Shown in pieces: positions 35,529 through 63,655 of a stretch of 64,000 nt of DNA (position 1 is the stretch's first letter; every line of letters starts with the position of its first letter). The DNA comes from Candidatus Brocadiia bacterium (lineage in GTDB: Bacteria; Planctomycetota; Brocadiia; CAIUPP01), in contig JBKQWE010000085.1 in assembly GCA_052139675.1 (NCBI GenBank), positions 1-64,000 on the forward strand, in the 5' to 3' direction. The notes under the pieces are model-generated. The model did no database searches and had not been told where the DNA came from. It saw nothing but the letters and a program-made list of their open reading frames with translations. A program made the translations under genes and the position numbers.

Positions 35529-35599
35529 AGACGGCGCAGCGTTGGAGATCTGAAACGTCCGCCCGGATATCGCCGGCGGCTCAATTAAGGAGAGTCAGG

Positions 35600-48225: not shown

Positions 48226-48253
48226 CGTCGTCTTCTCCTCTACGTTGAATGTC

Positions 48254-49342
48254 CTACTCCAGGCAGCCGCTGCCTTCGATGGGCCACACGTCCTCGACCA
48301 CGTCGCCGCGCGCCACGATCATCCGGCGATGGAGGTTGCTGGTGGTGCAGCCGTGCGACGGGATGAGCCGCAGGCGGTCGCCGATTCCGGCGGCCGCGTT
48401 CTTCACCGACGTGTGCTCTTCGGAAAGCTTGAGGACCTCCGCTGCCGGGTTTCCCATGACGGCGGGAAGGCCGAAATCGGAGCCGATCCCTTTGAGGCCG
48501 ACGTCGCAGATCGCGCGGTCCGGCTGGACGGAGATCACGGTCGCCAGGACGAACATGGCGTTGCGGAATTCCGGGCGCCGCGTCTTGTAATGCTTGTCCA
48601 TCAGCGCGTAACTCCCGGCCTGGACCTCGTTCATTCCCTCGATATTGCCGGTGACGTCATAGGTTCCGGTGCCGCCGCCCGAGATGATCGCGCACGGCAG
48701 CCCATGCCGCTCGAGTTCGGACCGCAGGGCGACGAGGCGGCCGATGCATTCCGTCGTGCGGCGCGCGCGTTCCCCGGCGTCCGGCAGCAGAACGAGGTGC
48801 CCTTCGTAGCCTTGCAGGCCGTCGAAGCGGAGGCCCGGCGAGTCGTGGACCTGCCGAGCCAGATCGAACGTCGGCTCGCCCGGCTGCACGCCGCAGCGGT
48901 TCATGCCGATATCCACCTCGACCAGGACGCCGATGGTCACGCCCGCCTCCTGCGCAGCGGCGTCGAGTTCGCGGACGTTCTGCGGCGAGTCCACGGCCAC
49001 TCGTACGACGGCGCGGCGGTTGAGTTCGGCCAGGCGGCGGCACTTGCCGGGCCCGACCACCTGGTTGGCGATGAGCACGTCGGCGATGCCGCCGGCGACG
49101 AGCGCTTCGCCTTCGGAAAGCTTGGCGGCGGTGATCCCCACCGCGCCGCCGGCCTGGAGTTGCCGGTGCGCGAGCGTCACGCACTTGTGCGACTTGAAGT
49201 GCGGGCGCAGCTTGCAGGGGCGCTGCGCAAAGTAGCGGGCCATCGTGTCGAGGTTGAACTGTAGCGCGTCGGCGTCCGCGACCAGCGCCGGCGTTTCCAC
49301 TCGGTCCAGGGTCTTACCGATGAGTTCGTGACGGTCCGCCAT
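48254..49342 (-). CDS. DSD1/D-threonine-aldolase family PLP enzyme (alanine-racemase-like fold)
   Basis: PHFKSHKC PLP-lysine motif of the D-serine dehydratase-like family. C-terminal domain CTTSNLH. Confidence 0.75.
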   Translation of the reverse strand: MADRHELIGKTLDRVETPALVADADALQFNLDTMARYFAQRPCKLRPHFKSHKCVTLAHRQLQAGGAVGITAAKLSEGEALVAGGIADVLIANQVVGPGKCRRLAELNRRAVVRVAVDSPQNVRELDAAAQEAGVTIGVLVEVDIGMNRCGVQPGEPTFDLARQVHDSPGLRFDGLQGYEGHLVLLPDAGERARRTTECIGRLVALRSELERHGLPCAIISGGGTGTYDVTGNIEGMNEVQAGSYALMDKHYKTRRPEFRNAMFVLATVISVQPDRAICDVGLKGIGSDFGLPAVMGNPAAEVLKLSEEHTSVKNAAAGIGDRLRLIPSHGCTTSNLHRRMIVARGDVVEDVWPIEGSGCLE

Positions 49343-49371
49343 GTCCTTCTCCTCTCTGGGCCGCGCTCTCT

Positions 49372-50922
49372 TCAAGCGCGCGCGCCCACTGCGCGGCCGG
49401 GCAGCTCTTCGGTCATCCGGCCGCCGTCGAGCACCAGGCGGCCGTTGACGGTCACATACTCGACGCCCTCGGCGTACTGCCGGCCGTCTTCATACGTGGA
49501 TCGGTCGGCGATGGTGTCCGGGTCGAAAACGACCGCGTCGGCCGCCATGCCGGGACGGAGCAGCCCGCGATCCCGCAGCCGATACCGCGCGGCGGGCGCG
49601 CCGGTCATCTTGCGGACGGCCTCCTCCAGCGACAGCCAGCGGCGCTCGCGGACCGCCTCGCGCAGGATCTTCGGGAATGCGCCGTAGGCCCGCGGATGCG
49701 GTCGGCCGCCCTGAAAGACGCCGTCCGAACTGACCATGTGCAACGGGTGAGTCAGGGCGCCGCGGAGGCGCTCCTCGTTGTGCCAGTGCGAGATCAGCAG
49801 CGGCATGAGCCGCTCCTGCACCAGCAGGTCGGCGGCGAAATCCACAGGCGCCTTGCCGCTCTCGCGGATCGCCTGCGCGAGCGTCTTTCCCAGCAGGCGC
49901 TGGTTCTCAGCCGTCGAGAGGGACGCGAAGACCAGGTCATCGAGCGAGTTGGGACCGCGGGCCAGGTGTGCCGTCGCTTCGGCCCGGAAGTGATCTCGCT
50001 CATGCGGATCGGCGAGCCGGGCGAGAATCTGCGCCGGGCTACCGGTCTGGAGGCGCGGCGGAAGATAGAACAACAGGCTCGTGCATCCGGCCATGTACGG
50101 ATAGGCGTCGAAGGTGACATCCACGCCGTCCCGGCGCAGCGCGTCAATCCGTTCACCGTCGAAGAAATGGCTGAAATGGATCGGCGCGCCCGATCCGCGC
50201 GCGATGGAGACCAACTCCTCAACGGCCTCCTTCGGGCGGCGGCCATAGTTCCTGAGATGGCAGGAGACGAGGCCGCCGTATTGCGCGACGACTTTGGCGA
50301 CGGCGGTGGTTTCCTCGACGGACGCGTGGGCGGCCGGATAATAGTCCAGCCCCAACTGAAGGCCGGTCGCGCCGGACTCCATCATCTCGCGGGCCATCGT
50401 TTTCATCTTCTCCAGTTCGTCGCGCGTCGCCGGACGGGCCTCCCAGCCCATCGCTTCGACGCGAAGAGAATTGAACGGGACCTGCGGGAGCACGTTCAAG
50501 GCGACTCGCCGGTCGAAGCGCTCGAGGTACTCGGCATAGGTGCGCCAGTTCCAGGACGGAAGGCGCGGGCCGTAAAAGGGGGCGAGGTAGTCACACATCT
50601 CGCTCATCCGGTCCGGGGAAAGCGCGGCCAGGGAGAAGCCGTCGGACGACATGATATCCGTCGTGACGCCCTGGCGAATGCGCGCCTCGGACGCTGCGCC
50701 GGAGAGAAGGTCAAGCTCCGAATGGACGTGAACGTCAATGAAGCCGGGGCAGAGCGCCTTGCCCGAAACGTCAATCCGCCGGGCGGCCTGCGCGCCGGAG
50801 AGCTGGCCCATCGCCGTGATGCGGTCGCCGACGATGCCGACATCCGCGCGAAACGGCGGACTGCCGGCGCCGTCAATCACGCGGGCATTCTGGAACAGAA
50901 GATCGAAAGGTCCGGGATTCAC
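49372..50922 (-). CDS. N-acyl-D-amino-acid deacylase (D-aminoacylase) family amidohydrolase
   Basis: LLFQNARVIDGAG..., PGFIDVHVHSELDLL metal-binding HxH, 517 codons. GTG start overlaps the upstream GNAT stop (GTGA). Confidence 0.75.
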   Translation of the reverse strand: MNPGPFDLLFQNARVIDGAGSPPFRADVGIVGDRITAMGQLSGAQAARRIDVSGKALCPGFIDVHVHSELDLLSGAASEARIRQGVTTDIMSSDGFSLAALSPDRMSEMCDYLAPFYGPRLPSWNWRTYAEYLERFDRRVALNVLPQVPFNSLRVEAMGWEARPATRDELEKMKTMAREMMESGATGLQLGLDYYPAAHASVEETTAVAKVVAQYGGLVSCHLRNYGRRPKEAVEELVSIARGSGAPIHFSHFFDGERIDALRRDGVDVTFDAYPYMAGCTSLLFYLPPRLQTGSPAQILARLADPHERDHFRAEATAHLARGPNSLDDLVFASLSTAENQRLLGKTLAQAIRESGKAPVDFAADLLVQERLMPLLISHWHNEERLRGALTHPLHMVSSDGVFQGGRPHPRAYGAFPKILREAVRERRWLSLEEAVRKMTGAPAARYRLRDRGLLRPGMAADAVVFDPDTIADRSTYEDGRQYAEGVEYVTVNGRLVLDGGRMTEELPGRAVGARA

Positions 50923-51455
50923 TTGGACTCCTGCCGAGTTCCTCGGCGCCTGTCCGGGATTATCAGCTTGACCATCTTGTAATCGTCCATCACAAAGCCG
51001 CGGCCGATCTTCCGGATGAGGCGCTTTGCCTTGGCAAAGCCCATGCGCTCGTAGAAGGCGATGGAACCTGCGTTGTGCCGGTTGACCGTCAGCCACAGCC
51101 TGCGGATGCCCCTCTCGGCGCAGCAGGCCTCGGCGAAGGCGATGATCGCTTTGCCCAGGCCGCGCCCGCGCCGCGCGTGGCGCACGTAAATCTTGCTGAG
51201 CTGCGCGGCGCGCTTCGTCCGGGCGGGCACGAGGGCGAAATAGCCCGCGTGCCGGCCGCGGTCGCTCACGAGATAGTACTCGTAGCCGGCGGCGATCTGT
51301 CCGCGGATCGCCGGCGCGCTCTGGAACCGTTCGAGCATGTAATCCACCTGCGCCTGTCCGATGATCGGAACGAAGTGCTCGTTCCAGATCTCGCGGGCCA
51401 GGTCGGCCACCGCCTTGATCTGCGACGCCTTGCGGACTTTCATCATCTCGACCAT
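50919..51455 (-). CDS. GNAT family N-acetyltransferase
   Basis: RGRGLGKAIIAFAE...NAGSIAFYERMGF acetyl-CoA-binding motifs. Confidence 0.75.
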   Translation of the reverse strand: MVEMMKVRKASQIKAVADLAREIWNEHFVPIIGQAQVDYMLERFQSAPAIRGQIAAGYEYYLVSDRGRHAGYFALVPARTKRAAQLSKIYVRHARRGRGLGKAIIAFAEACCAERGIRRLWLTVNRHNAGSIAFYERMGFAKAKRLIRKIGRGFVMDDYKMVKLIIPDRRRGTRQESK

Positions 51456-51557
51456 GACGCAACGTCTCCGCAGCCGATGATTTTCGTCAGTATGCCACGC
51501 CTCATCACCGAAGGCAATACAGGGCAGCTTGACGGAAACGACCTCGGTCGTCACAAT

Positions 51558-52982
51558 ATGAACTCCAAACGGATGTCGCCGACGGAGCACGTTTCAGGAG
51601 CGGGAATGCTTTTTCACACCTGGGTCTTCGCCGCATTTTTTCTGGTGTTCTACCCGGTCTACCTGGCGGTCAAGGGCACCCGTCTGCGGGACTACTGGCT
51701 GCTGCTGTCGTCATACGTGTTCTACGGCTGGTGGAACCCGCTGTACCTGCTGCTCATCAGCTACTCGACCGTGGTGGACTACTTCGTCGTCCTGCGGATG
51801 GTGAAGAGCCCGCACCGGAAACGGTGGCTGGCGCTGGCGGTGACCAACAACCTGTGCCTGCTGGCCACGTTCAAGTACGCCGGGTTCCTGACGGAGAACC
51901 TGAACGCGCTGCTGGCCGCGCTCGGAGGACAGTACGTCATCCCGGTGCCGAACTGGCTGCTGCCGGTGGGGATATCGTTCTACACCTTCCAGTCCATGAG
52001 TTACACCATAGACTGCTATCGCGGCCGCATCCAGCCGGAGCCGCGGTTCGTGCGGTTCGCCACGTTCGTGTCGCTGTTCCCGCAACTGGTGGCCGGGCCG
52101 ATCCAGCGCGCGTCGAACCTGCTGCCGCAGTTGCAGCAGGAGCAGAAGGTCACGCGGGCGGACGTGACGGACGGGCTGTCGCTCTTCCTGGTGGGCTTGT
52201 TCAAGAAGGTGGCGCTGGCGGACTACCTGGCGCTTTACGTGGACAAGGTCTACGGCGCTCCGGCACAGTACCAGGGTCCGGCGCTGCTGCTGGCGACGGC
52301 GGCGTTCGGGTGGCAGATCTACTTCGACTTCAGCGGCTATACGGACATGGCCCGCGGCATCGCGCGGATGATGGGCTACAAGCTGATGCTGAACTTCAAC
52401 CATCCGTACCTGGCGACGGGGCTTGGGGATTTCTGGTCGCGGTGGCACATCAGCCTGTCGAGCTGGTTCAAGGACTACGTGTACATCCCGATGGGCGGGA
52501 ACCGTGAAGGAACGCTGAAGACCTACAGGAACATGTGCCTGACCATGCTCATCTCGGGAGTGTGGCACGGAGCGACGTGGATGTTCGTCATCTGGGGCGC
52601 GCTGCACGCGCTGGGGCGGGTGCTCACGCGCGAGCTGGAAGGGACGGCGTTCTGGATGGAGCGCGTGCCGAAGTTCGTTAAGCAGATGCTGGTGTACGGC
52701 TTCGTCACCTTCGCATGGATCTTCTTCCGGGCGCGCTCGATGGGGGACGCGAAGGTGATCATCTCGAGGATCTTCAACCCGCAGTGGGTGGACCCGTCGT
52801 TCCCGCTGCTCGCGGCGATGCTGGTGCTGATGGTGTGGCTGTACCAATACCTGTATGAGTCGCGGGCGCGCTGGGCGCTGCAGCTTGCGCCGGTGCAGAC
52901 CGGGATGGCGGCGTGCATGGTCCTGTACCTGGCGACGATGGTGGGATCGAGCGACCGTCCGTTCATCTATTTCCAGTTCTGA
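51558..52982 (+). CDS. MBOAT family membrane-bound O-acyltransferase (AlgI/DltB/PatA-like)
   Basis: Polytopic protein with the conserved His region WHISLSSWFKDYVYIPMGG and SGVWHGATW. The start may be a downstream Met; a TTGACG-N17-CACAAT promoter-like sequence abuts the first ATG. Confidence 0.85.
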   Translation: MNSKRMSPTEHVSGAGMLFHTWVFAAFFLVFYPVYLAVKGTRLRDYWLLLSSYVFYGWWNPLYLLLISYSTVVDYFVVLRMVKSPHRKRWLALAVTNNLCLLATFKYAGFLTENLNALLAALGGQYVIPVPNWLLPVGISFYTFQSMSYTIDCYRGRIQPEPRFVRFATFVSLFPQLVAGPIQRASNLLPQLQQEQKVTRADVTDGLSLFLVGLFKKVALADYLALYVDKVYGAPAQYQGPALLLATAAFGWQIYFDFSGYTDMARGIARMMGYKLMLNFNHPYLATGLGDFWSRWHISLSSWFKDYVYIPMGGNREGTLKTYRNMCLTMLISGVWHGATWMFVIWGALHALGRVLTRELEGTAFWMERVPKFVKQMLVYGFVTFAWIFFRARSMGDAKVIISRIFNPQWVDPSFPLLAAMLVLMVWLYQYLYESRARWALQLAPVQTGMAACMVLYLATMVGSSDRPFIYFQF

Positions 52983-52995
52983 GAGGCTGTGCGGT

Positions 52996-54156
52996 ATGAC
53001 CTCCAGTGTTCAAGCCGAGCCAAAGGCGCTCGAACTCAGGCGCGAGGAGGCGCTGTACGGCTCGGTGGAGATGCCGTTGTCGCTGCGGCAATGGATGTGG
53101 GTCGCGGCGGTCGTGCTGGCGGTGCTGGCGGGACTGCCGGTCATCGGGCGGCGGCTGGAGGCTTTCCAGCCGGGCCCGGACTACCGCATTCCCTACGAGA
53201 TGAGCAGCGACTACTGGCTGTTCGAGCGATACAGCCGTCTGGCGGCGTCGGAATCGAAGACGCTGGTGGTCGGAGATTCGGTGGTCTGGGGCGAATACGT
53301 CGCCGCCGATGAGACGTTGTCTCACTACCTCGCGGCGCCGGACGGCGAGAACGGGTTCGCGAACCTGGGCGTGGACGGGATGTATCCGGTGGCGCAGCGC
53401 GGCCTCCTGGACTGGTACGGCGGAGGCATATCGAACTCGCGGGTCATCCTGCACTTCAATCCGCTCTGGATGGCGTCGCCGGAGCACGACCTTCGCGCGG
53501 GAAAGGAGTTCCGTTTCAACCATCCGGAACTTCTCCCGCAGTTCTCGCGGGAGATCCCGGCGTACAAGGCGTCCTTTGCCGACAGGCTGGCGATCGTGGC
53601 GGAACGCCTGCTGCCGTTCCGGCCCTGGGTGCGGCACTGGCGCTGGGAGTGCCTGGGCGGCGCGGACCTGGCCCGCTGGACGCTGAAGCATCCGTACGGC
53701 AGCCCCTTCACAGTGTCCGTGAGACGCGGCGAGGAGGACGAGCCGGCGCGACGCGTGAACCTGTCGTGGAAAGAGCGCGGGGCAACGGTGCAGGACTTCC
53801 CATGGGTCTCGCTGGCGGAGTCGCCCCAATGGCGCGCGTTCCGGGATTCGGTGGAGATGCTCCGCCGGCGCGGCGACACGGTGCTCGTGGCGGTGGGCCC
53901 GCTCAACGAATACATGCTCACGCCGCGGAGCCGTGACGGCTATCGCCGCGTGGTGAGCGAGGTGGGGCAGTGGCTGCGCGAGAACGGCGTGCTGTATTTC
54001 GCGCCTCCGGCGCTGCCCAGCGAGTATTATGCGGACGCGAGCCATCCGCTGCGCGCGGGATATGCGATGCTCGGACGCGAGCTGCTGGCGAGCGAGCCGT
54101 TCGCACGGCTCCTCCAGCCGGCGACCGAAAAGTTAGCGCAAGGAAGGGAAAGATGA
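52996..54156 (+). CDS. AlgX/AlgJ/PatB-like periplasmic SGNH-type acyltransferase/esterase partner of MBOAT
   Basis: Signal anchor WMWVAAVVLAVLAGLPVIG, then a GDS block (LVVGDSVVWGEY). Placed immediately downstream of the MBOAT gene. Confidence 0.5.
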   Translation: MTSSVQAEPKALELRREEALYGSVEMPLSLRQWMWVAAVVLAVLAGLPVIGRRLEAFQPGPDYRIPYEMSSDYWLFERYSRLAASESKTLVVGDSVVWGEYVAADETLSHYLAAPDGENGFANLGVDGMYPVAQRGLLDWYGGGISNSRVILHFNPLWMASPEHDLRAGKEFRFNHPELLPQFSREIPAYKASFADRLAIVAERLLPFRPWVRHWRWECLGGADLARWTLKHPYGSPFTVSVRRGEEDEPARRVNLSWKERGATVQDFPWVSLAESPQWRAFRDSVEMLRRRGDTVLVAVGPLNEYMLTPRSRDGYRRVVSEVGQWLRENGVLYFAPPALPSEYYADASHPLRAGYAMLGRELLASEPFARLLQPATEKLAQGRER

Positions 54157-55061
54157 GAACCGCAGCAGTACGCGTCATGATGGGACTGGCCCTTGCCGCC
54201 GCGCTGACCTGGGGATGCACGCGCCGCGACGCGGCTCCGAAGGGGACCTCGAAAGAACCATCTCCGCCGGCGGCGATAACCCCGGCGCCGCCCGACCGGC
54301 GCCCATTGATCGTGTTCTCCAGCGACCGATCAGGGCAGTGGAGGCTCTGGACGATTCAGCCGGACGGGACGGGGATGAAGCAATTGACCCAGGGCGGGCC
54401 GGAGGACGCGGACGTGGACCCGGCGTTCAGTCCGGACGGCGCGAGCATTTTGTTCACGTCAACGCGCGGCGGGAGTTCCGGCATCTGGCGGATGACGATT
54501 GCGACGGGGAAGATGGAGCGGGTCTGCGACGGCGACCAGGCCGGATGGTCGCCGGACGGCAATAGCATCGTCTTCCGCAGGAGCGAGAGGATATTCAGGC
54601 GCGACCTGGCCGGCGGCGCGGAGAAGGCGCTCTCGCCGGAGAGCTGGCCGCACTGCTCGGGGCCGGCGTGGAGTCCCAAAGGCGGCGAGATCGCGTTCGC
54701 GTGCCGATGGGATGCGGGGAACGGCGTGTACGTGATGCCGGCGGAGGGCGGCGAGCCGAGGAAGGTCTTCGGCGAACAGGGCGCGTGCCAGCCGCACTGG
54801 TCGCCGGACGGCGCGAAGATCGTCTATGAGACCGAGACCAACCTGTGCAGCATCAACCCCGACGGGACGCACAACCGCACCGTGACCTATTACGGCGGAG
54901 TGCAACGCCTTGCCCGATGGAGCCCGGACGGCAGCCGGCTGGTGTTCTGTCAGGCGGCCTCACCGAGCGGTCCGTGGGAGTTGTACACGGTGCCCGCGCA
55001 GGGCGGCGACCCGACGCGGCTGACCGAAGGCGGATCGGACATGTACCCGGACTGGAAGTAG
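54153..55061 (+). CDS. TolB-like PD40 beta-propeller lipoprotein
   Basis: Lipobox LTWGC. Five PD40 repeats (FSPDGASILF, WSPDGNSIVF, WSPKGGEIAF, WSPDGAKIVY, WSPDGSRLVF). ATGA overlap with the upstream gene. Confidence 0.8.
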   Translation: MRTAAVRVMMGLALAAALTWGCTRRDAAPKGTSKEPSPPAAITPAPPDRRPLIVFSSDRSGQWRLWTIQPDGTGMKQLTQGGPEDADVDPAFSPDGASILFTSTRGGSSGIWRMTIATGKMERVCDGDQAGWSPDGNSIVFRRSERIFRRDLAGGAEKALSPESWPHCSGPAWSPKGGEIAFACRWDAGNGVYVMPAEGGEPRKVFGEQGACQPHWSPDGAKIVYETETNLCSINPDGTHNRTVTYYGGVQRLARWSPDGSRLVFCQAASPSGPWELYTVPAQGGDPTRLTEGGSDMYPDWK

Positions 55062-55073
55062 AGGAGTTTCCCA

Positions 55074-56843
55074 GTGGCAGGCGGCGGTTGGAAAAAGATT
55101 ATTCTACTGCTGGCCGTAACGACCGCGGCGGCCATTTCGGCGGGCTGCCATCGTCAGCCGGCGCCGGCGTCTGCGCCCAAGGCTGCTGAGATCGCGGGGC
55201 CTTTCACGCGACTGTTCGACACCGGGGCCGCACTTTCGCGGACTCTGACTGCCGCTGATCTTTCCGCAAATGAAGGCTGGACAGCGGTGGCGGAGGATGT
55301 CACGGCGCACGAGTTCGCCGGGGATGCGGTGGTCGTCAACGACAAACTGGCGTTGGTCCTGTCCGCGAACGGCGCAGGCGCGAGCCTCTATTCAAGGGCA
55401 GGGCAGGCCCTGCGACTGCGCGCCGTGTTGGCGCCTGTCGGCGATGTCGGGGAAATGCCGCTCGCGGGTCTCAGGATTTCCGAGAACAGCTTTGCGGCGG
55501 TCGCCCTGGAGTGCACGTTCACGTCCAGGGCGGGGAAGGCGGCCGCGGTCGCGTACCGCCTGACCACGGGCGCGAACCTGGTGGAGGTGCGCCCGGGCAA
55601 AGGGGCGGAGCGGCTGCGCATCGAGCAGGAGATCAAGCACGTCGTGGTCCCGGACTACTTTGCGGATGACGTGGTGGTCAGCGCCGGGAGTTCCGGCCGG
55701 TCGCGGGTGGGCTTGCCCGCGGAGAACTGCCTGGTCAACCTCACGGGCGAGGGCGATGCGATCACCGCGTGCGTCTGGAAGTACGGGCAGGCCGACGTGG
55801 ACGCGATCATGGAAGGAACGGGAGAGAAGGCCTCATTCCAGGGCATCGAGATCGGGTGCGTGGCGGGGAAGAGCCTTTGGGTTGCCCTTCTGGAAGGACC
55901 GGGCATCTGGCACAGCCGGAGGCTTGCGGCGGGCGAGACCGGCGAGGTGGAACTGGCGTGGAGACGGCCTTTCGCGGCGCAGTGGCGATGCGACGTGATC
56001 GGCGCCGGTGGTCTTGCGCATTCGAGCAGTTTTGCGGATGCCCCCGGCGCAGGCGCGGATGCGGCGCGGTGCTGGTTCGACCATGAGCGGGCGTTCGTGC
56101 GGCTCCTCGAACCGCCGCCGGGAGAGGCGAACGCGACGGCTACAGAGGGCGGGATGACGCTGGTGGTCTATCCCATTGACCGCAGCCCGGCGACGCCGCT
56201 GACGGCGTTCTGCATTAACGATGTCATGCGCAGCGCATTGGGCACGGGCCCGTGCCAATATGTTTTAGAGGCGGAAGGGATGGGGACGGAATACCCGGCG
56301 ACGCCCGACCTGGTCAGCCGGTGGCTGGAGGAGCAGTTCCGGAAAGGGAAGCTGAGGAAGGAATCGGCGGCGCTGCGGGAGCGGCTCGACCAGATGACGC
56401 ATCACATCGAGGAGGTCCAGGGCCGGATCAGGGATTACGGAAAGCTGGCGGATAGTATACAATCAGCCTGCGCCGACCTGGGACCGAACGGGCCGCTGGC
56501 ACAGAAGGTGCTGAAGCTCCTGGAGGAAATGCGGCGCGCGGTCGCAGACGATGAGGACATCCGCCGGTCGGCGGAGCAAGTGACGCAGGAGGTCCTCGCG
56601 CTGGCTGAGAAGGAGGTCGGCGCGGACGAATGGCAGGCGGAGATGGGAAAGGTGCGCGCGCTGGGCGCGACCCAGGACAGTTCCCTGGCGCGGTGCCGAA
56701 TGATTTTGCGGCAGGTCATACAGTTGTGCAGAGGAGCGGAAGGGACGGCGGCGGACTTTGCGGACAGGATTAAGAAGCTGGCGCAGTCCGGGCTTCGCAA
56801 GGAAGCCCCCATTCATGAGGAGAGAGGCAATGGCTCGGAATAG
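55074..56843 (+). CDS. Hypothetical lipoprotein, paralogue A of a tandem pair
   Basis: Lipobox AISAGC. Shares blocks with the next gene (RLFDTGAA, HEFAGDAV, VPDYFADD/MPDFFADD, LPAEN/LPSEN, GPCQYVLEAEG/GPCEYVLDVEG). Confidence 0.5.
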   Translation: MAGGGWKKIILLLAVTTAAAISAGCHRQPAPASAPKAAEIAGPFTRLFDTGAALSRTLTAADLSANEGWTAVAEDVTAHEFAGDAVVVNDKLALVLSANGAGASLYSRAGQALRLRAVLAPVGDVGEMPLAGLRISENSFAAVALECTFTSRAGKAAAVAYRLTTGANLVEVRPGKGAERLRIEQEIKHVVVPDYFADDVVVSAGSSGRSRVGLPAENCLVNLTGEGDAITACVWKYGQADVDAIMEGTGEKASFQGIEIGCVAGKSLWVALLEGPGIWHSRRLAAGETGEVELAWRRPFAAQWRCDVIGAGGLAHSSSFADAPGAGADAARCWFDHERAFVRLLEPPPGEANATATEGGMTLVVYPIDRSPATPLTAFCINDVMRSALGTGPCQYVLEAEGMGTEYPATPDLVSRWLEEQFRKGKLRKESAALRERLDQMTHHIEEVQGRIRDYGKLADSIQSACADLGPNGPLAQKVLKLLEEMRRAVADDEDIRRSAEQVTQEVLALAEKEVGADEWQAEMGKVRALGATQDSSLARCRMILRQVIQLCRGAEGTAADFADRIKKLAQSGLRKEAPIHEERGNGSE

Positions 56844-59175
56844 CTGGAGCGGCCGGATGGTCCTGGCGGCTTTTGTCGTGCTGGCCGGGACGGCGGGGCT
56901 GGCCTCGGCGGCGGATGCGCAAAGGCCGAAGAACCTCCTGGCGAATCCGAGCTTCGAGATGGGAGCGGATCCGTGGGAGATGGATTCGGCGGACGGCTGC
57001 GAGGCGCGGTTCACGGTGGATAAGCAGGACGCGCGGGACGGCGAGTTCAGCGCGCTGGTTACGGTGGATAAGGTGGCTGAATACGGAGTGCAACTGGGGC
57101 AGAAAATTCCCGCCGGGCGGGTGGGCGGCACCTACACGTTTGCGGTCCTGGCCAAGGCCGTGGAAGGGCCGGCGACAATCGCCCTGCGAGTGGAGCGCGG
57201 CGCCGAGCCGTGGGATGCGCCCGGGCAGAGCGAGCCGGTCGCGCTGCGGAAGGACCAGTGGACGGAACTGCACATCACGTTCAAGGTGGACAAGCCATAC
57301 CCCGAAGGATGGTTCGCCTTCGTGTCTTGCGGCCAGGCGAAGAGCCGGTTCCGGCTGGACGGCGCGCGGCTGTACGAGGGAGAGTACGTCGCTTACCAGA
57401 AGGAAGCGCAGGCGGTGACGGCGGATGCAGGAGTGCGGCTGTTCGACACCGGCGCGGCTTCCGCCGATCCGCTTTCCGCGGCGGCGCTGTCGCAAAGGAG
57501 CGGCTGGACGCAATTGCCCGAGGACCAGGTGAAGCACGAATTCGCCGGCGACGCGGTCTTCCTGAACAACCGCCTGGCGGTGGCGCTGAGGCGAGGCGGG
57601 CACGGCGCGGAATTGTATTCGGCGGGAGCCGAGGGCTGGAAGGAACGAGCGGCGCTGGTCCCGGTCGGCCAGGGGCCGACGGATCCGGGCAAGATTCAAC
57701 TCTCGTCGGTCAAGGTCGTGGAAAATAACCCGGGAGACGTGAAGGTCGAGGCGGCGTTCCAGGCGGACGGAAAGCCGCTGAGCGTGGGATACGAACTCAA
57801 GATCGGCCAGCTTTACGTCAAGACGGAGCCGAAGGAAGGCGTCCGCGCCCTGCGGGTCGAGGCCGCGTGCCGCTTCGCGGTGATGCCGGACTTCTTCGCG
57901 GACGACATTATGCTGGACGCGACGGAGTTGCCGGTCGCGCGGGCGGAGCTGCCGAGCGAGAACTTCCTGCTGGAGATGCTCGAGGGGAACGACGCGTTGC
58001 TGATGAGCGTCTGGACGGAGCAGGACGAGGACGTGGCCGTCACGCTGAACGGGCAGGACGCGGCCAAGAGGATTGACGGCGCGGAGATCCAGTATGGCGC
58101 CAAGGGAAACGTGTGGGTCGCGGTGATGACGGCGCCGCAGATCTGGCACGTGCGGGACATCGGCCCGCAGGACATGAAGAAGGTGATTCCGCTGGAGTGG
58201 AAACAGCCTTATCCGGCGGTCTGGCGGGTGGACTGGCACAGGACCGACAAGCTGGCGGACAGTTGGGAGATGATCATGGAGCGCCCGGACGGGGCGTTCG
58301 CCAAGTACGGCTGGTTCCGCGGCATGGACGAGGTTCCGGCTGACCGCACGCGGTGGGCGACGGTGCTCGGCGATTTTCTCTATCCGTGCTGGATAGACAA
58401 GGACGGCCGCGGGAACCTGCAACCGCAGCCCTTCAGGCAGCGCGCGCGGTTCCAGGGACCGACGTTGATCTATCCCATCATGAGGCTGGGCGGCACGCCG
58501 CTGGACGCTTACACGGTGGTGGACGTGGTCCGCGCGACGCTGGGCGTGGGGCCCTGCGAGTACGTGCTGGACGTGGAAGGACAGCGCGCGCACTCCATGG
58601 GGATTGCGACGTGCGCGTGCCGGGACACCCTCACGCCGATTTACGAGCAGCATCAGCAGGGGCAGCGCAAGGCGGAGATCGAGCGCGCTCTCACCGATGT
58701 TATGCTCTTCGTGCGATTCATCCGCGGCCGGGTCGAGACGTACGTGACCTTCGGCCACGATATGTCGGGATACCTGGCCGAGTACGGAAAGGCGCATCCC
58801 GAGCTAGCCCCGCAGGTCGCGGAACTGGAGCGGCTGACCCGGGTCATTGACGAAAGGTACAACCGGCTGAGGGAGAACATCAAGACGCCCGACCAGACGC
58901 AGGAACTCGTGGACGCCTTCCGGAAGGCGCATCTGACCGACGAAACTCCGCAGGCGCTGGACGCGTGCAAGGAATTCACGAAGGCGCTGGTGGTGATCGG
59001 CGGCAGCCAGGACGAACTCGCCGGCGAGTGCCGGCAGGCGGTGAAGGTGCTGCGGCAGCAGGCGGGGCTCGCGATTGCGACGGACATCCGGATGGTGGAA
59101 CTGGCCAAGGAGGTCCGCAAACGAAGCCAGGAAGTGCTGCGCAGGCCGTCCTTCCATGAATGGCCGAGGTATTGA
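56830..59175 (+). CDS. Hypothetical secreted protein, paralogue B, with extra N-terminal CBM-like beta-sandwich
   Basis: Signal peptide, then a roughly 200-aa CBM4/9/22-like domain (NLLANPSFEMGADPWEMDS...GEFSALVTV...), then a body homologous to paralogue A. The start overlaps the end of gene A by 14 nt, with GAGGAGAGAGG RBS. Confidence 0.5.
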   Translation: MARNSWSGRMVLAAFVVLAGTAGLASAADAQRPKNLLANPSFEMGADPWEMDSADGCEARFTVDKQDARDGEFSALVTVDKVAEYGVQLGQKIPAGRVGGTYTFAVLAKAVEGPATIALRVERGAEPWDAPGQSEPVALRKDQWTELHITFKVDKPYPEGWFAFVSCGQAKSRFRLDGARLYEGEYVAYQKEAQAVTADAGVRLFDTGAASADPLSAAALSQRSGWTQLPEDQVKHEFAGDAVFLNNRLAVALRRGGHGAELYSAGAEGWKERAALVPVGQGPTDPGKIQLSSVKVVENNPGDVKVEAAFQADGKPLSVGYELKIGQLYVKTEPKEGVRALRVEAACRFAVMPDFFADDIMLDATELPVARAELPSENFLLEMLEGNDALLMSVWTEQDEDVAVTLNGQDAAKRIDGAEIQYGAKGNVWVAVMTAPQIWHVRDIGPQDMKKVIPLEWKQPYPAVWRVDWHRTDKLADSWEMIMERPDGAFAKYGWFRGMDEVPADRTRWATVLGDFLYPCWIDKDGRGNLQPQPFRQRARFQGPTLIYPIMRLGGTPLDAYTVVDVVRATLGVGPCEYVLDVEGQRAHSMGIATCACRDTLTPIYEQHQQGQRKAEIERALTDVMLFVRFIRGRVETYVTFGHDMSGYLAEYGKAHPELAPQVAELERLTRVIDERYNRLRENIKTPDQTQELVDAFRKAHLTDETPQALDACKEFTKALVVIGGSQDELAGECRQAVKVLRQQAGLAIATDIRMVELAKEVRKRSQEVLRRPSFHEWPRY

Positions 59176-59179
59176 GGCC

Positions 59180-60076
59180 ATGAAGCCCGTCGAGATGCGA
59201 CGCTGCGTCTTGGTCATGCTGGCGGGAGCGGTGTTGCTCCTGGGCTGCCTGGTCAACTGCGGCTGCCGGAAGAAGGATAACTCGCCGGCGACGCCCGTCC
59301 AGTCCATCCGGACCGCGGGCGGGATCGAGATGGTCCTCGTTCCCGCCGGCGATTTTCTCATGGGGAACGATCGCGGCGAAGAGGACGAGAAGCCGGCGCA
59401 CCGGGTCCACGTGAGCAGTTTCTATATGGACAAATTCGAGGTGACGCAGAAGTCCTTCGAGGGACTGATGGGGACGAACCCGTCCAAGTTCAAAGGCCCG
59501 GACAAACCGGTGGAGCGGGTCAGTTGGCTCGCGGCGGTCAAGTACTGCAACATGCGATCGCTGAAGGAGGGACTCAAGCCCTGCTACGACCTGGAGACCA
59601 TGGCGTGCAACTTCGATGCGGACGGGTATCGGCTGCCGACCGAGGCGGAATGGGAGTGCGCCTGCCGCGCCGGGAGCACGACGGATTATTCCTTCGGAAA
59701 CGATCCGGCGCTGCTGCGCGACTACGGCTGGTTCAAGGACAACTCCGGCGAGACGACGAATCCCGTGGGCGAGAAGCGGCCGAACGCGTGGGGCCTGCAC
59801 GACATGCACGGGAACGTCTCGGAGTGGTGCAACGACTTCTACGCGGAAGATGCCTATCGCCAGTCCGGCGGCGACGAGCCGCATGGGCCGGCGACCGGAG
59901 AGAAGCGCGTGCTTCGCGGCGGGAACTGGCGGAGCGATGCCGGCCAGTGCCGGTCGAGCGCGCGATCGGCGGAGTCGCCCGGATTTGCCGACGTGTGCTT
60001 CGGCTACGAGACCTACGGCTTCCGGTGCGCGCGGAAGGCGGCGCCGGGAGCCGGCAAGCAGGGCGGCGGGACTTGA
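59180..60076 (+). CDS. FGE-sulfatase (SUMF1-like) domain lipoprotein
   Basis: Lipobox LLLGC, then RVSWLAAVKYCN, GYRLPTEAEWECACRAGSTTDY, HDMHGNVSEWCND, LRGGNW FGE-domain motifs. Confidence 0.85.
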   Translation: MKPVEMRRCVLVMLAGAVLLLGCLVNCGCRKKDNSPATPVQSIRTAGGIEMVLVPAGDFLMGNDRGEEDEKPAHRVHVSSFYMDKFEVTQKSFEGLMGTNPSKFKGPDKPVERVSWLAAVKYCNMRSLKEGLKPCYDLETMACNFDADGYRLPTEAEWECACRAGSTTDYSFGNDPALLRDYGWFKDNSGETTNPVGEKRPNAWGLHDMHGNVSEWCNDFYAEDAYRQSGGDEPHGPATGEKRVLRGGNWRSDAGQCRSSARSAESPGFADVCFGYETYGFRCARKAAPGAGKQGGGT

Positions 60077-60129
60077 ACCCGCGTCCTCCGGCCCCAGTCC
60101 GGGCAGCAACCGGTCAGGGGTGACGGGCA

Positions 60130-61425
60130 TTGGAGTCTGCCGTGATCACGCAAACCGACCTGTACCGCCGACTGAAGCTCGCGGTGGACGGCATGCCGGC
60201 GATTGACACGCACGTTCATCTCGATGCCGCCGATCCGCTCAGCCCGGACGTGCTGGCGGTGGTCCAGTACCACAACTACTTCAGCGAAGTGACCGGCGCA
60301 GCGGCCGAACTGCCGTTCGATGACCGCATGCCGCCGCGCGAACGCCTGCGGGCGATGGCGCCTCTTCTGAAGATCTCGAACCGTTCCGCCCACGCCTGGA
60401 TGCTGCGGGAGACGCTGCGGCAGGTTTACGGCTTCGACGAGGAATTGACGCCGAAAAACTGCGATCGGCTTTACGATGAATCCGTCGCGCGCCGGCAGCG
60501 GCCCGGCCGCTTCGCCGAAGTCTGCCGCATCGCCGGAGTGTCCGGCATCCTCGTCCATCTTCCGCCCCGGCCCGTGGCGCAGTGCGGCGCGGATGACGCG
60601 ATCTTCGTCGGCCTGAGCGACCTGCGCGTTCCCGCCCTGCCGGACCGGAAAGCGCTCGCGTCCTTCGAAAAACAATCCGGCCACGCGGTTCACGGCCCGC
60701 GCGATTTACTGGAGGCCGCCGTCTCCTGCTGCAAGCGCTCCGCCGACGCCGGGCAGGCGGGCCTGCGCGTCAATATCCCGCCGGGCTGCGTCATTCGCGA
60801 TGGGACGCCGGCTGAGCGGGAAAACGCTTTCGCCAAGGCTGCGACCGACAAAACGCTTTCGCCGGAGGAGACGCAACTCCTTCAAACGCTGGCGCTGGAC
60901 GCCGCCGCGACGGGCGCGGCGGCGTCCGGGCTGGCCGTGCAAATATTCCTCGCGACCGGACTGGTGAACGGCGTTTCGTTCCCCGCCGCCGATCCGCATC
61001 TCCTGAGTTCGCTGATAACGTATCTCACGCGCTATCCGAAGGTCCGCTTTGAAGTCTACACGGTCGTCGAGAGCTTCACCCAGCCGCTCGGCCTCCTGGC
61101 CAAGTACCGGCGGAACTGCCACCTCGGCGGCTGCTGGTGGTTCTGCCAGTTTCCCGAGATCATGGCGCAGACCTACTCGCTGCGCCTGGACATGCTGCCG
61201 GCCTCGAAGTGGAGCGCTTTCTTCAGCGACTCCTACGTGGCCGAATGGATCGTGGGCAAGATGGCCCTCACGCGGAAAGAGCTGACGAAAGCGCTGGCCC
61301 TCAAGGTGGCGGACGGGTACATGACCGAGGAGGACGCGCTGGCGACAGCGCGCGAGGCGCTGTTCGAAACGCCCAGCCGGATCTACGGCCTGCCCCGGAA
61401 ACAGCGCACGTTGCAGGGGCATTGA
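60130..61425 (+). CDS. Metal-dependent TIM-barrel hydrolase/isomerase (amidohydrolase-superfamily, glucuronate-isomerase-like)
   Basis: N-terminal IDTHVHLDAADP HxH motif. 431 aa. TTG/GTG start uncertain. Confidence 0.4.
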   Translation: MESAVITQTDLYRRLKLAVDGMPAIDTHVHLDAADPLSPDVLAVVQYHNYFSEVTGAAAELPFDDRMPPRERLRAMAPLLKISNRSAHAWMLRETLRQVYGFDEELTPKNCDRLYDESVARRQRPGRFAEVCRIAGVSGILVHLPPRPVAQCGADDAIFVGLSDLRVPALPDRKALASFEKQSGHAVHGPRDLLEAAVSCCKRSADAGQAGLRVNIPPGCVIRDGTPAERENAFAKAATDKTLSPEETQLLQTLALDAAATGAAASGLAVQIFLATGLVNGVSFPAADPHLLSSLITYLTRYPKVRFEVYTVVESFTQPLGLLAKYRRNCHLGGCWWFCQFPEIMAQTYSLRLDMLPASKWSAFFSDSYVAEWIVGKMALTRKELTKALALKVADGYMTEEDALATAREALFETPSRIYGLPRKQRTLQGH

Positions 61426-61438
61426 AGCGGTATCACCG

Positions 61439-63655
61439 TTACGGCGCCGGCGGCGCGGCCGTCTGGGCATCCACCGTTACGTCGAAGCCGCCCTGGCGCG
61501 AGCCGTGCCAGGTGGCCGCCTCAAACCTGCCCTTGGCCGCCTCCCATTTCCACGTGTCGGCGATGCCCTGCCCGCTGACCGTGATCGTCGCCTTGTCCGG
61601 ACCGTCGGGCGTCAGGGTGACTTTCACTTCCTTGTGCCACGGGTCAATGACGCAGGCGTAGCGCGCGGCGTTTCCCTTGGCGCTGGCCTGGAGCTGTTGC
61701 CAGTTCATCAGTTTGCTGCGATCGTTGGCGGTCGAGACGCCGATCTTCGACTTGAGCGGCACGTCCGCCACAAGCTGGAACTCGCACTCGGCAGCGCCCT
61801 TGGCCAGCCGGTAGCGCCCCTCGGCCGCGTTCACCGGCTGGAGCCTGGCGCCCTGGATGAGCCAGGTGATCTCGACCGGCTTCGGCGAGCGGATGTCGTC
61901 GAACGTCAGAATGTAGCCGTCCTTGACCCAGATGAAAGTCCGGCGGAAACGGTCAATGGCCGGGCGGCTCTTCTTGGCCGCGGCATCCTCGTAAGCCAGG
62001 TACGACCCGGCCGCCTCGCCTTCGGCCACCACGACATCGCCGGCGTCCTTATAGGCGGTGATCTTGGCCATCTCCGTCATGTCGTGATCGCCGGGCTGTT
62101 GCCACTCCTGCCCTTCGGGTTGCCCGTCCGCGGCCTGGCCGATGCCGTTGATCAGGATCGTGTTGACGCTCGAGGAGAGCTTGCCCGGCCTCTCCGCATA
62201 GCGGTCCGTCTCGGCCAGGTACTCGCCATCGCCCAGGACGACGAAGGAATTCGCGTCGGGATGATCATGGGCCACGTTTTCGTAGGGCAGCTTGCCGTCG
62301 GCGTCCTTGCGGCTCAATCGCCAGGCGCCGGCCTTGTAGCCGCCCATCGGGCCGCACTTGAACATCGCGGCCACGGCCTTGTCCTGCCAGGAATCGCGCG
62401 TGACGGAAATCCCCAAGTCCGGCAGGAACGCCGTCGTCGGCAGGTTGGCGTAATGGCCGCCCTGCACGGTCTGATCATTGAAGATCAGCGGCTGCCATGC
62501 GGACCCCTTCGCGCTCCATCCTTTGTCGTTGACTTGCAGGCCATGCCGGATGCCGTCCATGACGTCGGCCTGCTTATATATAGCGGCTGTTTTCAGGAAG
62601 AACGGATTGAAACTGGCCCCCTTGGTGAAGCAGTCGCCGAAGTACAGGGCCTCGGTCAGGCCCGGCGCCGAGATGTCCAGCGCGTAGGTGGCCACATTCC
62701 GATAGAACGGCAAGTCGAGATAATGCGTCCCGCTCAAATCGTCCGAGACTTTGAGCGCCATGCCCAGGGCGCCGGAACTGCCGCCGTAATAGGGTCCCTC
62801 GTGCTGGCTGCCGTCCGCCGGCAACCAGTCCGCCATGAACTTGAGTTCCTTCTCCACCTCGCTGAGCAGCCACTGTTCCTCCGGTTTGCCCTCGCCCGTG
62901 CCGAGGGCGGCCAGCGTCATGCCCCAGTCCCGGAACCAGCGGTGATTGTACGCCGGCACGCCGTGCCAGTAGTCGCCGCCGGGATTGGCGCCCTTGTGGC
63001 CGCCGTAGTACATCGCGCGGGCATGCTGCCAGAGCACCTGGCGGAACTCCTCGCGGAACGCCGGGTCCAGATCGTTGTACAGCCAGTCCCACGTCAGCGA
63101 CGCGCCGACCATCGTGAACGACGCCGTCGTATCGCTGTTCCGCTCATCGCGCGGTCCGAGCTGCTTCAACTTCTGCATGACCTTGGCATAGGCCTCCGGC
63201 GTGTCGGCCACGGCCGGCTCGCCGCCCTCGGTCCAATCGGCCGTCCCGGCCAGCCATTTCAGGTAAGCTACCGACTTCTCGAACGAGGCGTGGTCCTTCG
63301 TCAGCACATAGTGCAGGGCCACCGTCGGAATCTTGAGCAGCCCGTATTCCTGGCCCCAGGCCGGGCTCGTCTTGCGATCTTTCGGCACCGTGCACTCGGC
63401 GACATAACTTTCGATGTACGCCCGGTAGATGCTGCCCTGCGGGCTGTTGAACAAGGCCTTGAGCTGCGGAATCCGCTCGGCGGTGATCAGCAGCCTCGGA
63501 TGCTTGTTCGCAGCGGCATCAAGGTACTTGACGGCCGGCCCTTCCGCCGCGGCCGGATCCTTTTCCGGCATGATCGGCCCCGCGGCCCGTACCGACGCAG
63601 CAAAGACCAACGCAGCCGAAACCAGCGCCGCCGACGGCAGGAGGATCTTCATCAT
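61439..63655 (-). CDS. Heparinase II/III-like polysaccharide lyase family protein
   Basis: Signal peptide MMKILLPSAALVSAALVFAASVRA. Alpha/alpha-toroid N-terminal region and HDHPDANSFVV heparinase II/III-type motif. 738 aa. Confidence 0.65.
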   Translation of the reverse strand: MMKILLPSAALVSAALVFAASVRAAGPIMPEKDPAAAEGPAVKYLDAAANKHPRLLITAERIPQLKALFNSPQGSIYRAYIESYVAECTVPKDRKTSPAWGQEYGLLKIPTVALHYVLTKDHASFEKSVAYLKWLAGTADWTEGGEPAVADTPEAYAKVMQKLKQLGPRDERNSDTTASFTMVGASLTWDWLYNDLDPAFREEFRQVLWQHARAMYYGGHKGANPGGDYWHGVPAYNHRWFRDWGMTLAALGTGEGKPEEQWLLSEVEKELKFMADWLPADGSQHEGPYYGGSSGALGMALKVSDDLSGTHYLDLPFYRNVATYALDISAPGLTEALYFGDCFTKGASFNPFFLKTAAIYKQADVMDGIRHGLQVNDKGWSAKGSAWQPLIFNDQTVQGGHYANLPTTAFLPDLGISVTRDSWQDKAVAAMFKCGPMGGYKAGAWRLSRKDADGKLPYENVAHDHPDANSFVVLGDGEYLAETDRYAERPGKLSSSVNTILINGIGQAADGQPEGQEWQQPGDHDMTEMAKITAYKDAGDVVVAEGEAAGSYLAYEDAAAKKSRPAIDRFRRTFIWVKDGYILTFDDIRSPKPVEITWLIQGARLQPVNAAEGRYRLAKGAAECEFQLVADVPLKSKIGVSTANDRSKLMNWQQLQASAKGNAARYACVIDPWHKEVKVTLTPDGPDKATITVSGQGIADTWKWEAAKGRFEAATWHGSRQGGFDVTVDAQTAAPPAP

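Follow-up and report, generated by a model that had tools for sequence, protein, structure and literature searches.

To move acyl groups through the membrane and attach them to envelope polymers, bacteria generally rely on a membrane O-acyltransferase of the MBOAT family paired with an SGNH-fold partner. The acceptors identified so far are only a handful: peptidoglycan, alginate, cellulose, secondary wall polymers and teichoic acids. The literature on such pairs names only the Pat, Alg, Wss/Ccs, PatA1B1 and Dlt systems, and the characterised bacterial pairs all act on glycans or teichoic acids (PMC12148441). Central to the chemistry is FxYxxF, the "acyl-shuttle" motif: the tyrosine of PatA is auto-acetylated from acetyl-CoA and then donates the group to the SGNH partner, a mechanism established for PatA/PatB and proposed for all MBOAT–SGNH pairs (PMC12148441). 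In acyl-CoA-using MBOATs the motif is fused to the enzyme itself, whereas in the Dlt pathway it is carried by the micro-protein DltX (PMC12148441). Here we describe a cluster of six genes, g1 to g6, that opens with such a pair and lies in a 64,000-nucleotide stretch of contig JBKQWE010000085.1 (assembly GCA_052139675.1) from a Candidatus Brocadiia bacterium; this whole stretch is referred to below as the window.

On balance, the cluster is probably an extracytoplasmic O-acylation system, most likely for O-acetylation, of the MBOAT–SGNH type and equipped with new periplasmic accessory proteins. It defines a further, phylogenetically broad MBOAT–SGNH subfamily, distinguished by a PD40 propeller, an FGE-fold lipoprotein and two paralogues with a supersandwich domain. 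Its hosts are uncultured Planctomycetota, Verrucomicrobiota, Omnitrophota, Hydrogenedentota and others, whose envelopes are poorly understood. Finding the acceptor would reveal an undescribed envelope modification, and perhaps an undescribed polymer as well, and would assign a role to a family of about 1,300 clusters for which Pfam has no model.

A tightly packed cluster of six genes

Listing of open reading frames (ORFs) and inspection of start codons placed a string of seven co-directional genes on the + strand at about 51.56–61.43 kb. This is the position and orientation given in an initial annotation of the same DNA, which had counted eight genes and taken them for one packed operon ending in an amidohydrolase-like enzyme. 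Intergenic distances from g1 to g7 were 13, −4, 12, −14, 4 and 53 nucleotides (nt), the stop codon of g2 and the start codon of g3 sharing an ATGA. The tight packing therefore holds for g1–g6, which all lie no more than 14 nt apart, and breaks down at the 53-nt gap before g7. The six genes g1–g6 belong together, and g7 is a neighbour rather than a member.

The leading gene, g1 (51606..52982, +), has an in-frame upstream ATG at 51558. Its start is probably ATG 51606, because the resulting 458 aa are the commonest orthologue length, an AGGAG stands just upstream, and a promoter-like match ends at 51557. That match, TTGACG-17-CACAAT at 51529..51557 (+) in the divergent intergenic region upstream of g1, is the only sigma-70-like one in 50.8–62 kb; shuffled sequence is expected to give 1.1, so the site is weak when taken alone, and its position fits a g1 start at 51606. 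A riboswitch or leader RNA reading was rejected, as Rfam gave no match at E ≤ 1 across 51.3–61.6 kb. The proteins of g2–g6 each carry one N-terminal hydrophobic segment, whereas g7 has none at its N-terminus. A role in anti-phage defence was also rejected: none of the seven proteins had a PADLOC match.

The GC content of the window is about 65%. GC skew is strongly positive over g1–g6 (+0.12 to +0.195 in 2-kb windows, window positions 52001–60000) and lies between −0.06 and +0.10 in the remaining window, other + strand genes included. The skew of the cluster could reflect amino-acid composition, high expression or foreign origin.

The MBOAT–SGNH core

The genes g1 and g2 have every sequence and structural feature of an acyl-CoA-type MBOAT–SGNH transferase pair. 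The protein of g1, an MBOAT-family membrane O-acyltransferase of the PatA/AlgI class, matched Pfam MBOAT at 4e-23; its nearest NCBIfam model was DltB (1e-42), at a score below the cut-off (TIGR04091, 146.5 bits against 375). The alignment to the DltB structures 8jem and 6bug (1.5e-27) spanned the histidine of the WHG motif. RWH is found at residue 279, WHG at residue 320 (His321) and a C-terminal FIYFQF at residues 453–458. His321 aligns with the WHG of the DltB structures, and W[HN]G is present in 31 of 34 orthologues; the C-terminal motif, as F[IV]Y[FAL][QR]F, occurs in all 34 full-length orthologues from related loci. The RWHISLS…DY…GGNR block of g1 also appears AlgI-like.

The partner gene, g2 (52996..54156, +), encodes a 386-aa, N-terminally anchored, DltD-like acyltransferase with an SGNH fold and an invariant Ser-Asp-His triad. 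Its invariant SGNH blocks, GDS95, N155 and D347xxH350, are present in 34–35 of 35 locus orthologues. DltD was the best full-length (longest) structural match of g2. This likeness is structural only, since g2 had no Pfam match, the DltD model PF04914 included. Members of the g2 family gave at most weak GDSL or DltD matches in Pfam scans, those to PF04914 being found in 2 of 43 members with a best value of 1.7e-4. The single N-terminal hydrophobic anchor supports a predicted outward-facing domain. The MBOAT plus SGNH-type core named in the initial annotation is thus real, as seen in the FxYxxF motif of g1 and in the fold and invariant triad of g2.

These features suggest a sequence of transfer steps. 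By the motifs tested and by what is known of the family, the conserved histidine of g1 would take an acyl group from cytoplasmic acyl-CoA and load it, at the outer face of the inner membrane, onto Tyr455 of the protein's own C-terminal FIYFQF shuttle. The g2 protein, held by one N-terminal helix, would accept the group on Ser95 (triad Ser95-Asp347-His350) and pass it to a hydroxyl of an extracytoplasmic envelope polymer, which would be made elsewhere. Auto-acetylation of Tyr455 and an acyl-enzyme intermediate at Ser95 are predictions of this scheme.

Conservation of the cluster across phyla

A pattern scan of one genome per species returned 130 relatives of g4. From these, 79 loci were fetched, all of them from metagenome-assembled genomes (MAGs), and their ORFs were annotated by BLAST. 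By their labels, these loci belong to Planctomycetota (several classes), Verrucomicrobiota, Hydrogenedentota, Omnitrophota, Sumerlaeota, Lentisphaeria and "Anaerolineales"; a further locus, from Poribacteria, was found by a separate look-up. In what follows, P denotes the PD40 gene, A and B the two paralogues, F the FGE gene, M the MBOAT gene and S the SGNH gene, with P' and F' for a second set upstream of M.

The order P-A-B-F, on one strand, recurs in most of the 79 MAG loci and in at least five phyla, and the incomplete cases are mostly cut by contig ends. The return of one gene order in different phyla places the arrangement far outside what chance would give. Synteny, one of the checks that the initial annotation had set for itself, is therefore strongly conserved, and its proposal was not refuted on this point. 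The M and S genes occur together in 33 loci, and M without S in none. Among the 27 loci with complete flanks, M-S lies within 10 kb of the cluster in 17 (63%), always co-oriented with a P/F set and in several phyla.

Several arrangements of the two parts were found: P'-F'-M-S-P-A-B-F in six loci plus variants, M-S-P-A-B-F, the type seen in the window, in four, P-A-B-F-M-S in three plus variants, and a divergent S-M-F'-P' | P-A-B-F in four. In 25 of 32 loci, the gene immediately upstream of M is an FGE gene. Four further loci (L084–L087), found through homologues of g2, have an FGE::Hist_deacetyl gene followed by the MBOAT–SGNH pair, with no A or B; two PD40 genes flank it in three of the four. 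PD40 and FGE genes thus accompany this MBOAT–SGNH subfamily wherever it was sampled, and A-B is a frequent insert between P and F. Other neighbours are sparse (GFO/IDH/MocA in nine loci, sulfatase in seven, DegT in four), and no synthase or exporter recurs among the neighbours of the related loci.

In one of these loci, a 39-codon ORF lies between the MBOAT and SGNH genes (L085:9885-10004); the 13-nt gap in the window leaves no room for an equivalent.

Fusions of the accessory domains in relatives

In at least nine loci, an FGE-sulfatase domain is fused to a class-II HDAC-type Hist_deacetyl domain (E about 1e-100), and the fused gene lies directly upstream of MBOAT–SGNH. Such FGE::Hist_deacetyl genes are found at L035:4314-6404, L044:2751-4727, L056:2887-4740(−), L068:2367-4697, L074:13554-15902 and L078:3483-6443, and also in L084–L087. 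The closest similarity of the Hist_deacetyl domain is to HDAC6, a lysine deacetylase (about 1e-70 per domain). A stand-alone deacetylase at L021:61-1251, with a signal-like N-terminus, is likewise most similar to HDAC6. No HDAC-like gene was found in the window. The fusion suggests turnover, with acyl groups being put on and taken off one and the same substrate. A secreted HDAC-type enzyme adjoining an O-acyltransferase is unusual.

Two further fusions concern the same accessory domains. A single ORF at L077:11773-13578 joins FGE and PD40 and would be a Rosetta-stone link between the two accessory families. At L014:14020-16281, FGE is followed by a C-terminal region with weak, below-threshold matches of the alpha/beta-hydrolase type (glucuronoyl esterase and S9 peptidase).

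The accessory proteins

The PD40 and FGE proteins flank the paralogues in the window. The gene g3 (54153..55061, +) encodes a 302-aa secreted or lipidated PD40 beta-propeller (Pfam PD40, 9e-23), a member of the P subfamily that precedes paralogue A. The initial annotation had called it TolB-like. The PD40 repeats bear this out, but the TolB identity does not hold: g3 scored 124 bits against a cut-off of 343 with the TolB model TIGR02800, and only the propeller part (positions 249–363) matched. With a score this far below cut-off and no N-terminal domain, g3 was rejected as a true TolB of a Tol-Pal system, and there are no tol or pal genes near the cluster among the window genes scanned. A cysteine follows its hydrophobic region, as a signal or lipobox, and its P orthologues are mixed in signal type.

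The PD40 proteins fall into two subfamilies. Members that precede A share about 65% identity with one another across phyla, and only about 25% with the PD40 proteins upstream of FGE–MBOAT. In this division, g3 belongs to the pre-A PD40 group, and g6 to the post-B group of FGE proteins. At about 65% identity across phyla (loci L004–L082), the pre-A PD40 protein is far more conserved than A itself, which is mostly 30–40% identical to g4. This conservation implies strong constraint or recent horizontal spread.

The gene g6 (59180..60076, +) encodes a 298-aa lipoprotein with an FGE fold (C-type-lectin-like). A lipidated FGE/SUMF1-domain protein had been proposed here, and both the domain (Pfam FGE-sulfatase, 1e-51) and the lipobox (LLLGC) were found; enzymatic FGE function is the part that falls away. 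In alignment with true FGEs, g6 has GGNWRSDAGQC in place of GGSYLCHDSYC, the first active-site cysteine being changed to serine. It is predicted to be non-catalytic as an FGE because one of the two active-site cysteines is replaced. A lipobox is present in nearly all F orthologues inspected, and only the FGE protein is consistently a lipoprotein. Its best match in the PDB is Treponema denticola variable protein 1 (TvpA, 2y3c; 6e-43), with PorK (9mzu) at 3e-17. Two identities were rejected for g6: a sulfatase-maturing FGE, given the missing cysteine and sulfatases that are only occasional neighbours (the seven loci above), and a PorK/GldK protein of the type IX secretion system (T9SS), given a score below cut-off (TIGR03525, 109 bits against 350; NCBIfam GldK, 3e-31) and no T9SS partner genes in the window region or related loci.

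Between them lie the two paralogues. Paralogue A, g4 (55074..56843, +), is a 589-aa protein with a signal or lipoprotein peptide, a supersandwich domain and a C-terminal helical bundle; paralogue B, g5 (56830..59175, +), is a 781-aa protein with a signal peptidase I (SPase-I) signal, an N-terminal CBM4_9 carbohydrate-binding module (CBM) and then a body of the g4 type. The initial annotation had described two large paralogous lipoproteins without a nameable domain, the second bearing a CBM4/9-like module. Paralogy is clear (BLASTP E 6e-76, 32% identity over about 590 residues, nearly all of g4), and the module was recovered as Pfam CBM_4_9 (PF02018) at residues 34–165 of g5, nt ~56929–57324 (8e-9, 36.5 bits against a cut-off of 25.9). 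The description of both as lipoproteins was not sustained, since g5 has an SPase-I type signal (…LASA|ADAQ, Ala-x-Ala) and no lipobox. In g4 a cysteine follows the hydrophobic region, and inspection of N-termini showed mostly SPase-I signals in its orthologues.

A match of the paralogues to a well-characterised family of unrelated function, which the initial annotation had named as a refuting outcome, was likewise not seen. Neither Pfam nor NCBIfam has a model for the A/B family: g4 had no Pfam match, and none of 41 A-family members has a Pfam domain match. A profile of the family searched against the PDB by sequence returned coiled-coil noise only, and no known catalytic domain was detected in A or B. 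Homology to DUF5107 was rejected at an hhalign probability of 0.1 against the window's own DUF5107 protein. The only Pfam domains fused to the family are CBM_4_9, in one to four copies, and a weak, below-threshold TPR in one protein. B-type paralogues vary, with tandem B-B arrangements and one to four CBM4_9 modules (L008:4212-7874; P0269; P-A-B-B-F in L010, L043 and L055). The family comprises 1,276 clusters at 50% identity with E ≤ 1e-3, of which 538 are at ≤ 1e-30, and it has a very conserved block, YPIDRS…LGxGPCQY…EG, with invariant Asp, Arg, Glu and Trp.

A structural model of g4, built with 41 homologues (pLDDT 85.8, pTM 0.85), has a beta-rich, galactose-mutarotase-like supersandwich at about residues 45–370 and a helical bundle at about residues 410–573. 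Structural superposition on known members placed the first domain in the supersandwich fold, a fold also seen in domains of glycoside hydrolases, polysaccharide lyases and mutarotases. Through their supersandwich domains and the CBM4_9 of g5, the two paralogues may bind or process a glycan acceptor, possibly pairing through their helical bundles. The g3 and g6 proteins would be dedicated partners of the MBOAT–SGNH subfamily, probably recognising or tethering the substrate.

Neighbouring genes in the window

The seventh gene, g7 (60130..61425, +), encodes a 431-aa protein of the amidohydrolase superfamily, uronate-isomerase-like. The amidohydrolase-like identity given to it earlier was upheld by its best PDB entry (4i6v, "Amidohydrolase 2", 9e-13), with uronate isomerases following at about 1e-7; the protein had no Pfam match and scored 35.7 against a cut-off of 387 with the UxaC model NF002794, below the level of an equivalog. 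By these scores, g7 appears to be a distant amidohydrolase or uronate-isomerase relative. Its membership in the operon was rejected, in view of the 53-nt gap, the lack of a signal peptide and its absence from all 79 related loci, including one with a g4 orthologue 88% identical; in L004, a convergent gene follows F in place of g7.

Convergent to g7, the gene at window positions 61439–63655 (−) encodes a 738-aa signal-bearing protein resembling PL15 and oligo-alginate lyases (3a0o, 1e-10; weak DUF4962 match). Together with g7, it looks like a separate pair for uronate-polysaccharide catabolism. Neither gene is syntenic with the cluster elsewhere, except for a heparinase-like gene about 7 kb away in L003.

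On the other side, four co-directional genes at 44902–51455 (−) run divergently from the cluster: a GNAT acetyltransferase (50919–51455, −), a D-aminoacylase-like Amidohydro_3 protein (49372–50982, −), an Ala_racemase_N/D-Ser-dehydratase-like protein (48254–49375, −) and a 1107-aa DUF5107+TPR protein (44902–48225, −). The Amidohydro_3 and Ala_racemase_N genes suggest N-acyl-D-amino-acid metabolism. Probing with Amidohydro_3, the sole gene of the string so used, found no counterpart beside the cluster in other loci. About 13 kb upstream, genes for DUF2950 (1e-105) and DUF2079 (a predicted membrane protein, 2e-39) adjoin at 34910–38034 (+). The window genes scanned at 34.9–51.5 kb encode DUF2950, DUF2079, DUF72, DUF5696, DUF5107-TPR, D-Ser-dehydratase-like, D-aminoacylase-like and GNAT proteins. 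Neither these genes nor the cluster contain a glycosyltransferase, synthase or exporter. The initial annotation had noted that no glycosyltransferase or synthase is present, and this now extends to the conserved neighbours in other genomes.

Discussion

The reading of g1–g6 as one extracytoplasmic O-acylation system is supported by the tight gaps between the genes, the recurrence of P-A-B-F, the FGE gene upstream of M and the FGE–PD40 fusion in L077. The initial proposal of envelope glycan O-acylation with uncharacterised accessories is thus borne out for the MBOAT–SGNH core and the accessory set, while its glycan acceptor keeps the standing of an inference, as does a peptidoglycan acceptor.

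Several observations weigh against this reading. In 10 of the 27 fully flanked loci, P-A-B-F has no M-S within 10 kb, and in L084–L087 M-S is found with no A/B; the two halves are therefore separable modules. The term "glycan" rests on folds and the CBM, because no synthase, glycosyltransferase or exporter is linked to the cluster. The supersandwich fold itself also occurs in non-carbohydrate contexts, for example in YidC P1, and the ligands of FGE and PD40 domains can be peptides instead of sugars. Being of the amidase type and not an esterase, the HDAC6-like partner does not fit neatly with the removal of O-acetyl groups. An A–B heterodimer and any P–F complex are pure conjecture.

The separability of the halves is also the starting point of the alternative that survives best, which we regard as possible though improbable: that the locus joins two independent modules. 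P-A-B-F would then be a periplasmic glycan-processing unit in which A and B are new, CBM4_9-targeted carbohydrate-active enzymes harvesting or remodelling polysaccharide, and the MBOAT–SGNH pair would be a frequent neighbour acting on another substrate. Besides the 10 loci lacking M-S nearby, this account can draw on the pairs that have PD40 and FGE genes but no A/B, and on the conserved block of the A/B family, whose invariant Asp, Arg, Glu and Trp would suit an active site. Under the CAZy convention, the usual place of a CBM is on a catalytic module. It also counts in favour of this account that a uronate-isomerase-like gene and a PL15-like lyase gene adjoin the cluster in the window, and that sulfatases and GFO/IDH/MocA oxidoreductases are occasional neighbours elsewhere. 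On the other hand, neither g7 nor the lyase gene is conserved with the cluster, and no known catalytic domain was found in A or B. Against independence stand the ATGA overlap of g2 and g3, the spacing of all six genes at 14 nt or less, and the adjacency of M-S in 63% of fully flanked loci, co-oriented with a P/F set in several phyla.

A more far-reaching proposal, which we consider rather unlikely, combines the MBOAT–SGNH pair, its PD40/FGE partners and the secreted HDAC6-like deacetylase of relatives into an unrecognised reversible envelope acylation system, widespread in the PVC group and neighbouring candidate phyla. Its acceptor would lie outside alginate, cellulose, peptidoglycan MurNAc and teichoic acid; it could be a new glycan of the envelope, or even an amine or hydroxyl group on a protein or peptide. 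With A/B, a new family of carbohydrate-active enzymes or binding proteins, about 1,300 clusters in size, would be established. As the initial annotation had supposed, the gene combination of the cluster does not appear to be a described system: a literature search found no paper on it, nor on its accessory genes, the A/B family or the association of FGE with an HDAC-type domain.

Peptidoglycan is the acceptor in a further alternative, in which the cluster performs a lineage-specific O-acetylation with PatA/PatB function and its enzyme pair is held at the sacculus by the accessory proteins. We think this unlikely. It accords with the PatA-type fused shuttle motif of g1, with a housekeeping polymer made elsewhere, as no dedicated polymer synthase is linked, and with the deacetylase of relatives, since peptidoglycan-modifying gene sets have one too; PD40 repeats are, moreover, common to TolB, part of the peptidoglycan-associated Tol-Pal system.

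It is very improbable that the acceptor is a protein or peptide, acylated reversibly outside the cytoplasm by the MBOAT–SGNH pair as writer and the FGE-fused HDAC6-like enzyme as eraser, with PD40 and FGE binding peptides. The presence of CBM4_9 and of a supersandwich of the glycan-enzyme type, and the lack of an HDAC-like gene in the window, count against such a cycle, although the fused deacetylase is nearest to a lysine deacetylase and has a signal-like N-terminus. The idea gains something from true FGEs, whose substrates are peptides, from PD40 propellers, which are known in peptidases and with which our Pfam side-matches accord, and from eukaryotic MBOATs, which acylate secreted proteins. 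It is at odds with the characterised bacterial MBOAT–SGNH pairs, all of which act on glycans or teichoic acids (PMC12148441).

Least credible of all is that P-A-B-F forms a structural envelope scaffold like PorK/PorN rings or Tol-Pal, with no enzymatic or glycan role: g6 does resemble non-catalytic FGE-fold PorK/GldK (9mzu, 3e-17; GldK, 3e-31) and TvpA, g3 has TolB-type repeats, the long helical bundles of A/B could oligomerise, and about 65% identity across phyla in the P subfamily is typical of tightly packed complexes, but the PorK/GldK and TolB models scored far below their cut-offs, no T9SS or Tol genes are adjacent, and the CBM, deacetylase and hydrolase-like fusions point to substrate chemistry.

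Comparison with described systems

Set against described systems, the putative O-acylation cluster shares individual parts with several. The DUF5107-TPR proteins (PDB 5cd6, BDI_1685) have no detectable sequence relation to g4/g5, whose helical part is a bundle and not a set of TPR repeats. With TvpA and PorK/GldK, g6 shares the form of an FGE-fold lipoprotein lacking the full catalytic cysteine pair; it differs in having neither a diversity-generating retroelement nor type IX secretion genes adjacent to it.

Likeness to the Dlt system lies in the enzymes: for g1, DltB gave both the highest-scoring MBOAT model and the best match among solved structures, and for g2, DltD gave the best full-length structural match. 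The differences are more extensive. The DltB equivalog score of g1 was 146 against a cut-off of 375; no DltA, DltC or DltX gene was found, and the cluster genes contain no carrier-protein or adenylation domain. There is no small ORF in the 13-nt gap between g1 and g2, the shuttle being fused to the MBOAT rather than carried by a micro-protein, and the hosts are diderm PVC-type bacteria without teichoic acids. Identity as a Dlt system was rejected on the missed cut-off, the missing DltA/DltC/DltX and the fused shuttle.

The AlgI/AlgJ/AlgF/AlgX and WssH/WssI/WssF/WssG systems are alike in overall plan, an MBOAT and SGNH partner with extra periplasmic accessories for polymer handling; in AlgX, an alginate accessory, an enzyme fold and a CBM are joined. 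Genes for an alginate or cellulose synthase were not found near the cluster, g4/g5 have no detected homology to a characterised family, and the accessory folds are PD40, FGE and supersandwich instead.

In its core, the cluster resembles PatA/PatB of Neisseria and Campylobacter: an MBOAT with the universal histidine and a fused C-terminal FxYxxF shuttle, next to an SGNH-fold transferase that has a Ser-Asp-His triad and is anchored at its N-terminus. Such a pair needs no carrier protein, and an acyl-CoA donor is therefore implied. The catalytic chemistry is thus of a known kind; the accessory set is what differs from the described systems.

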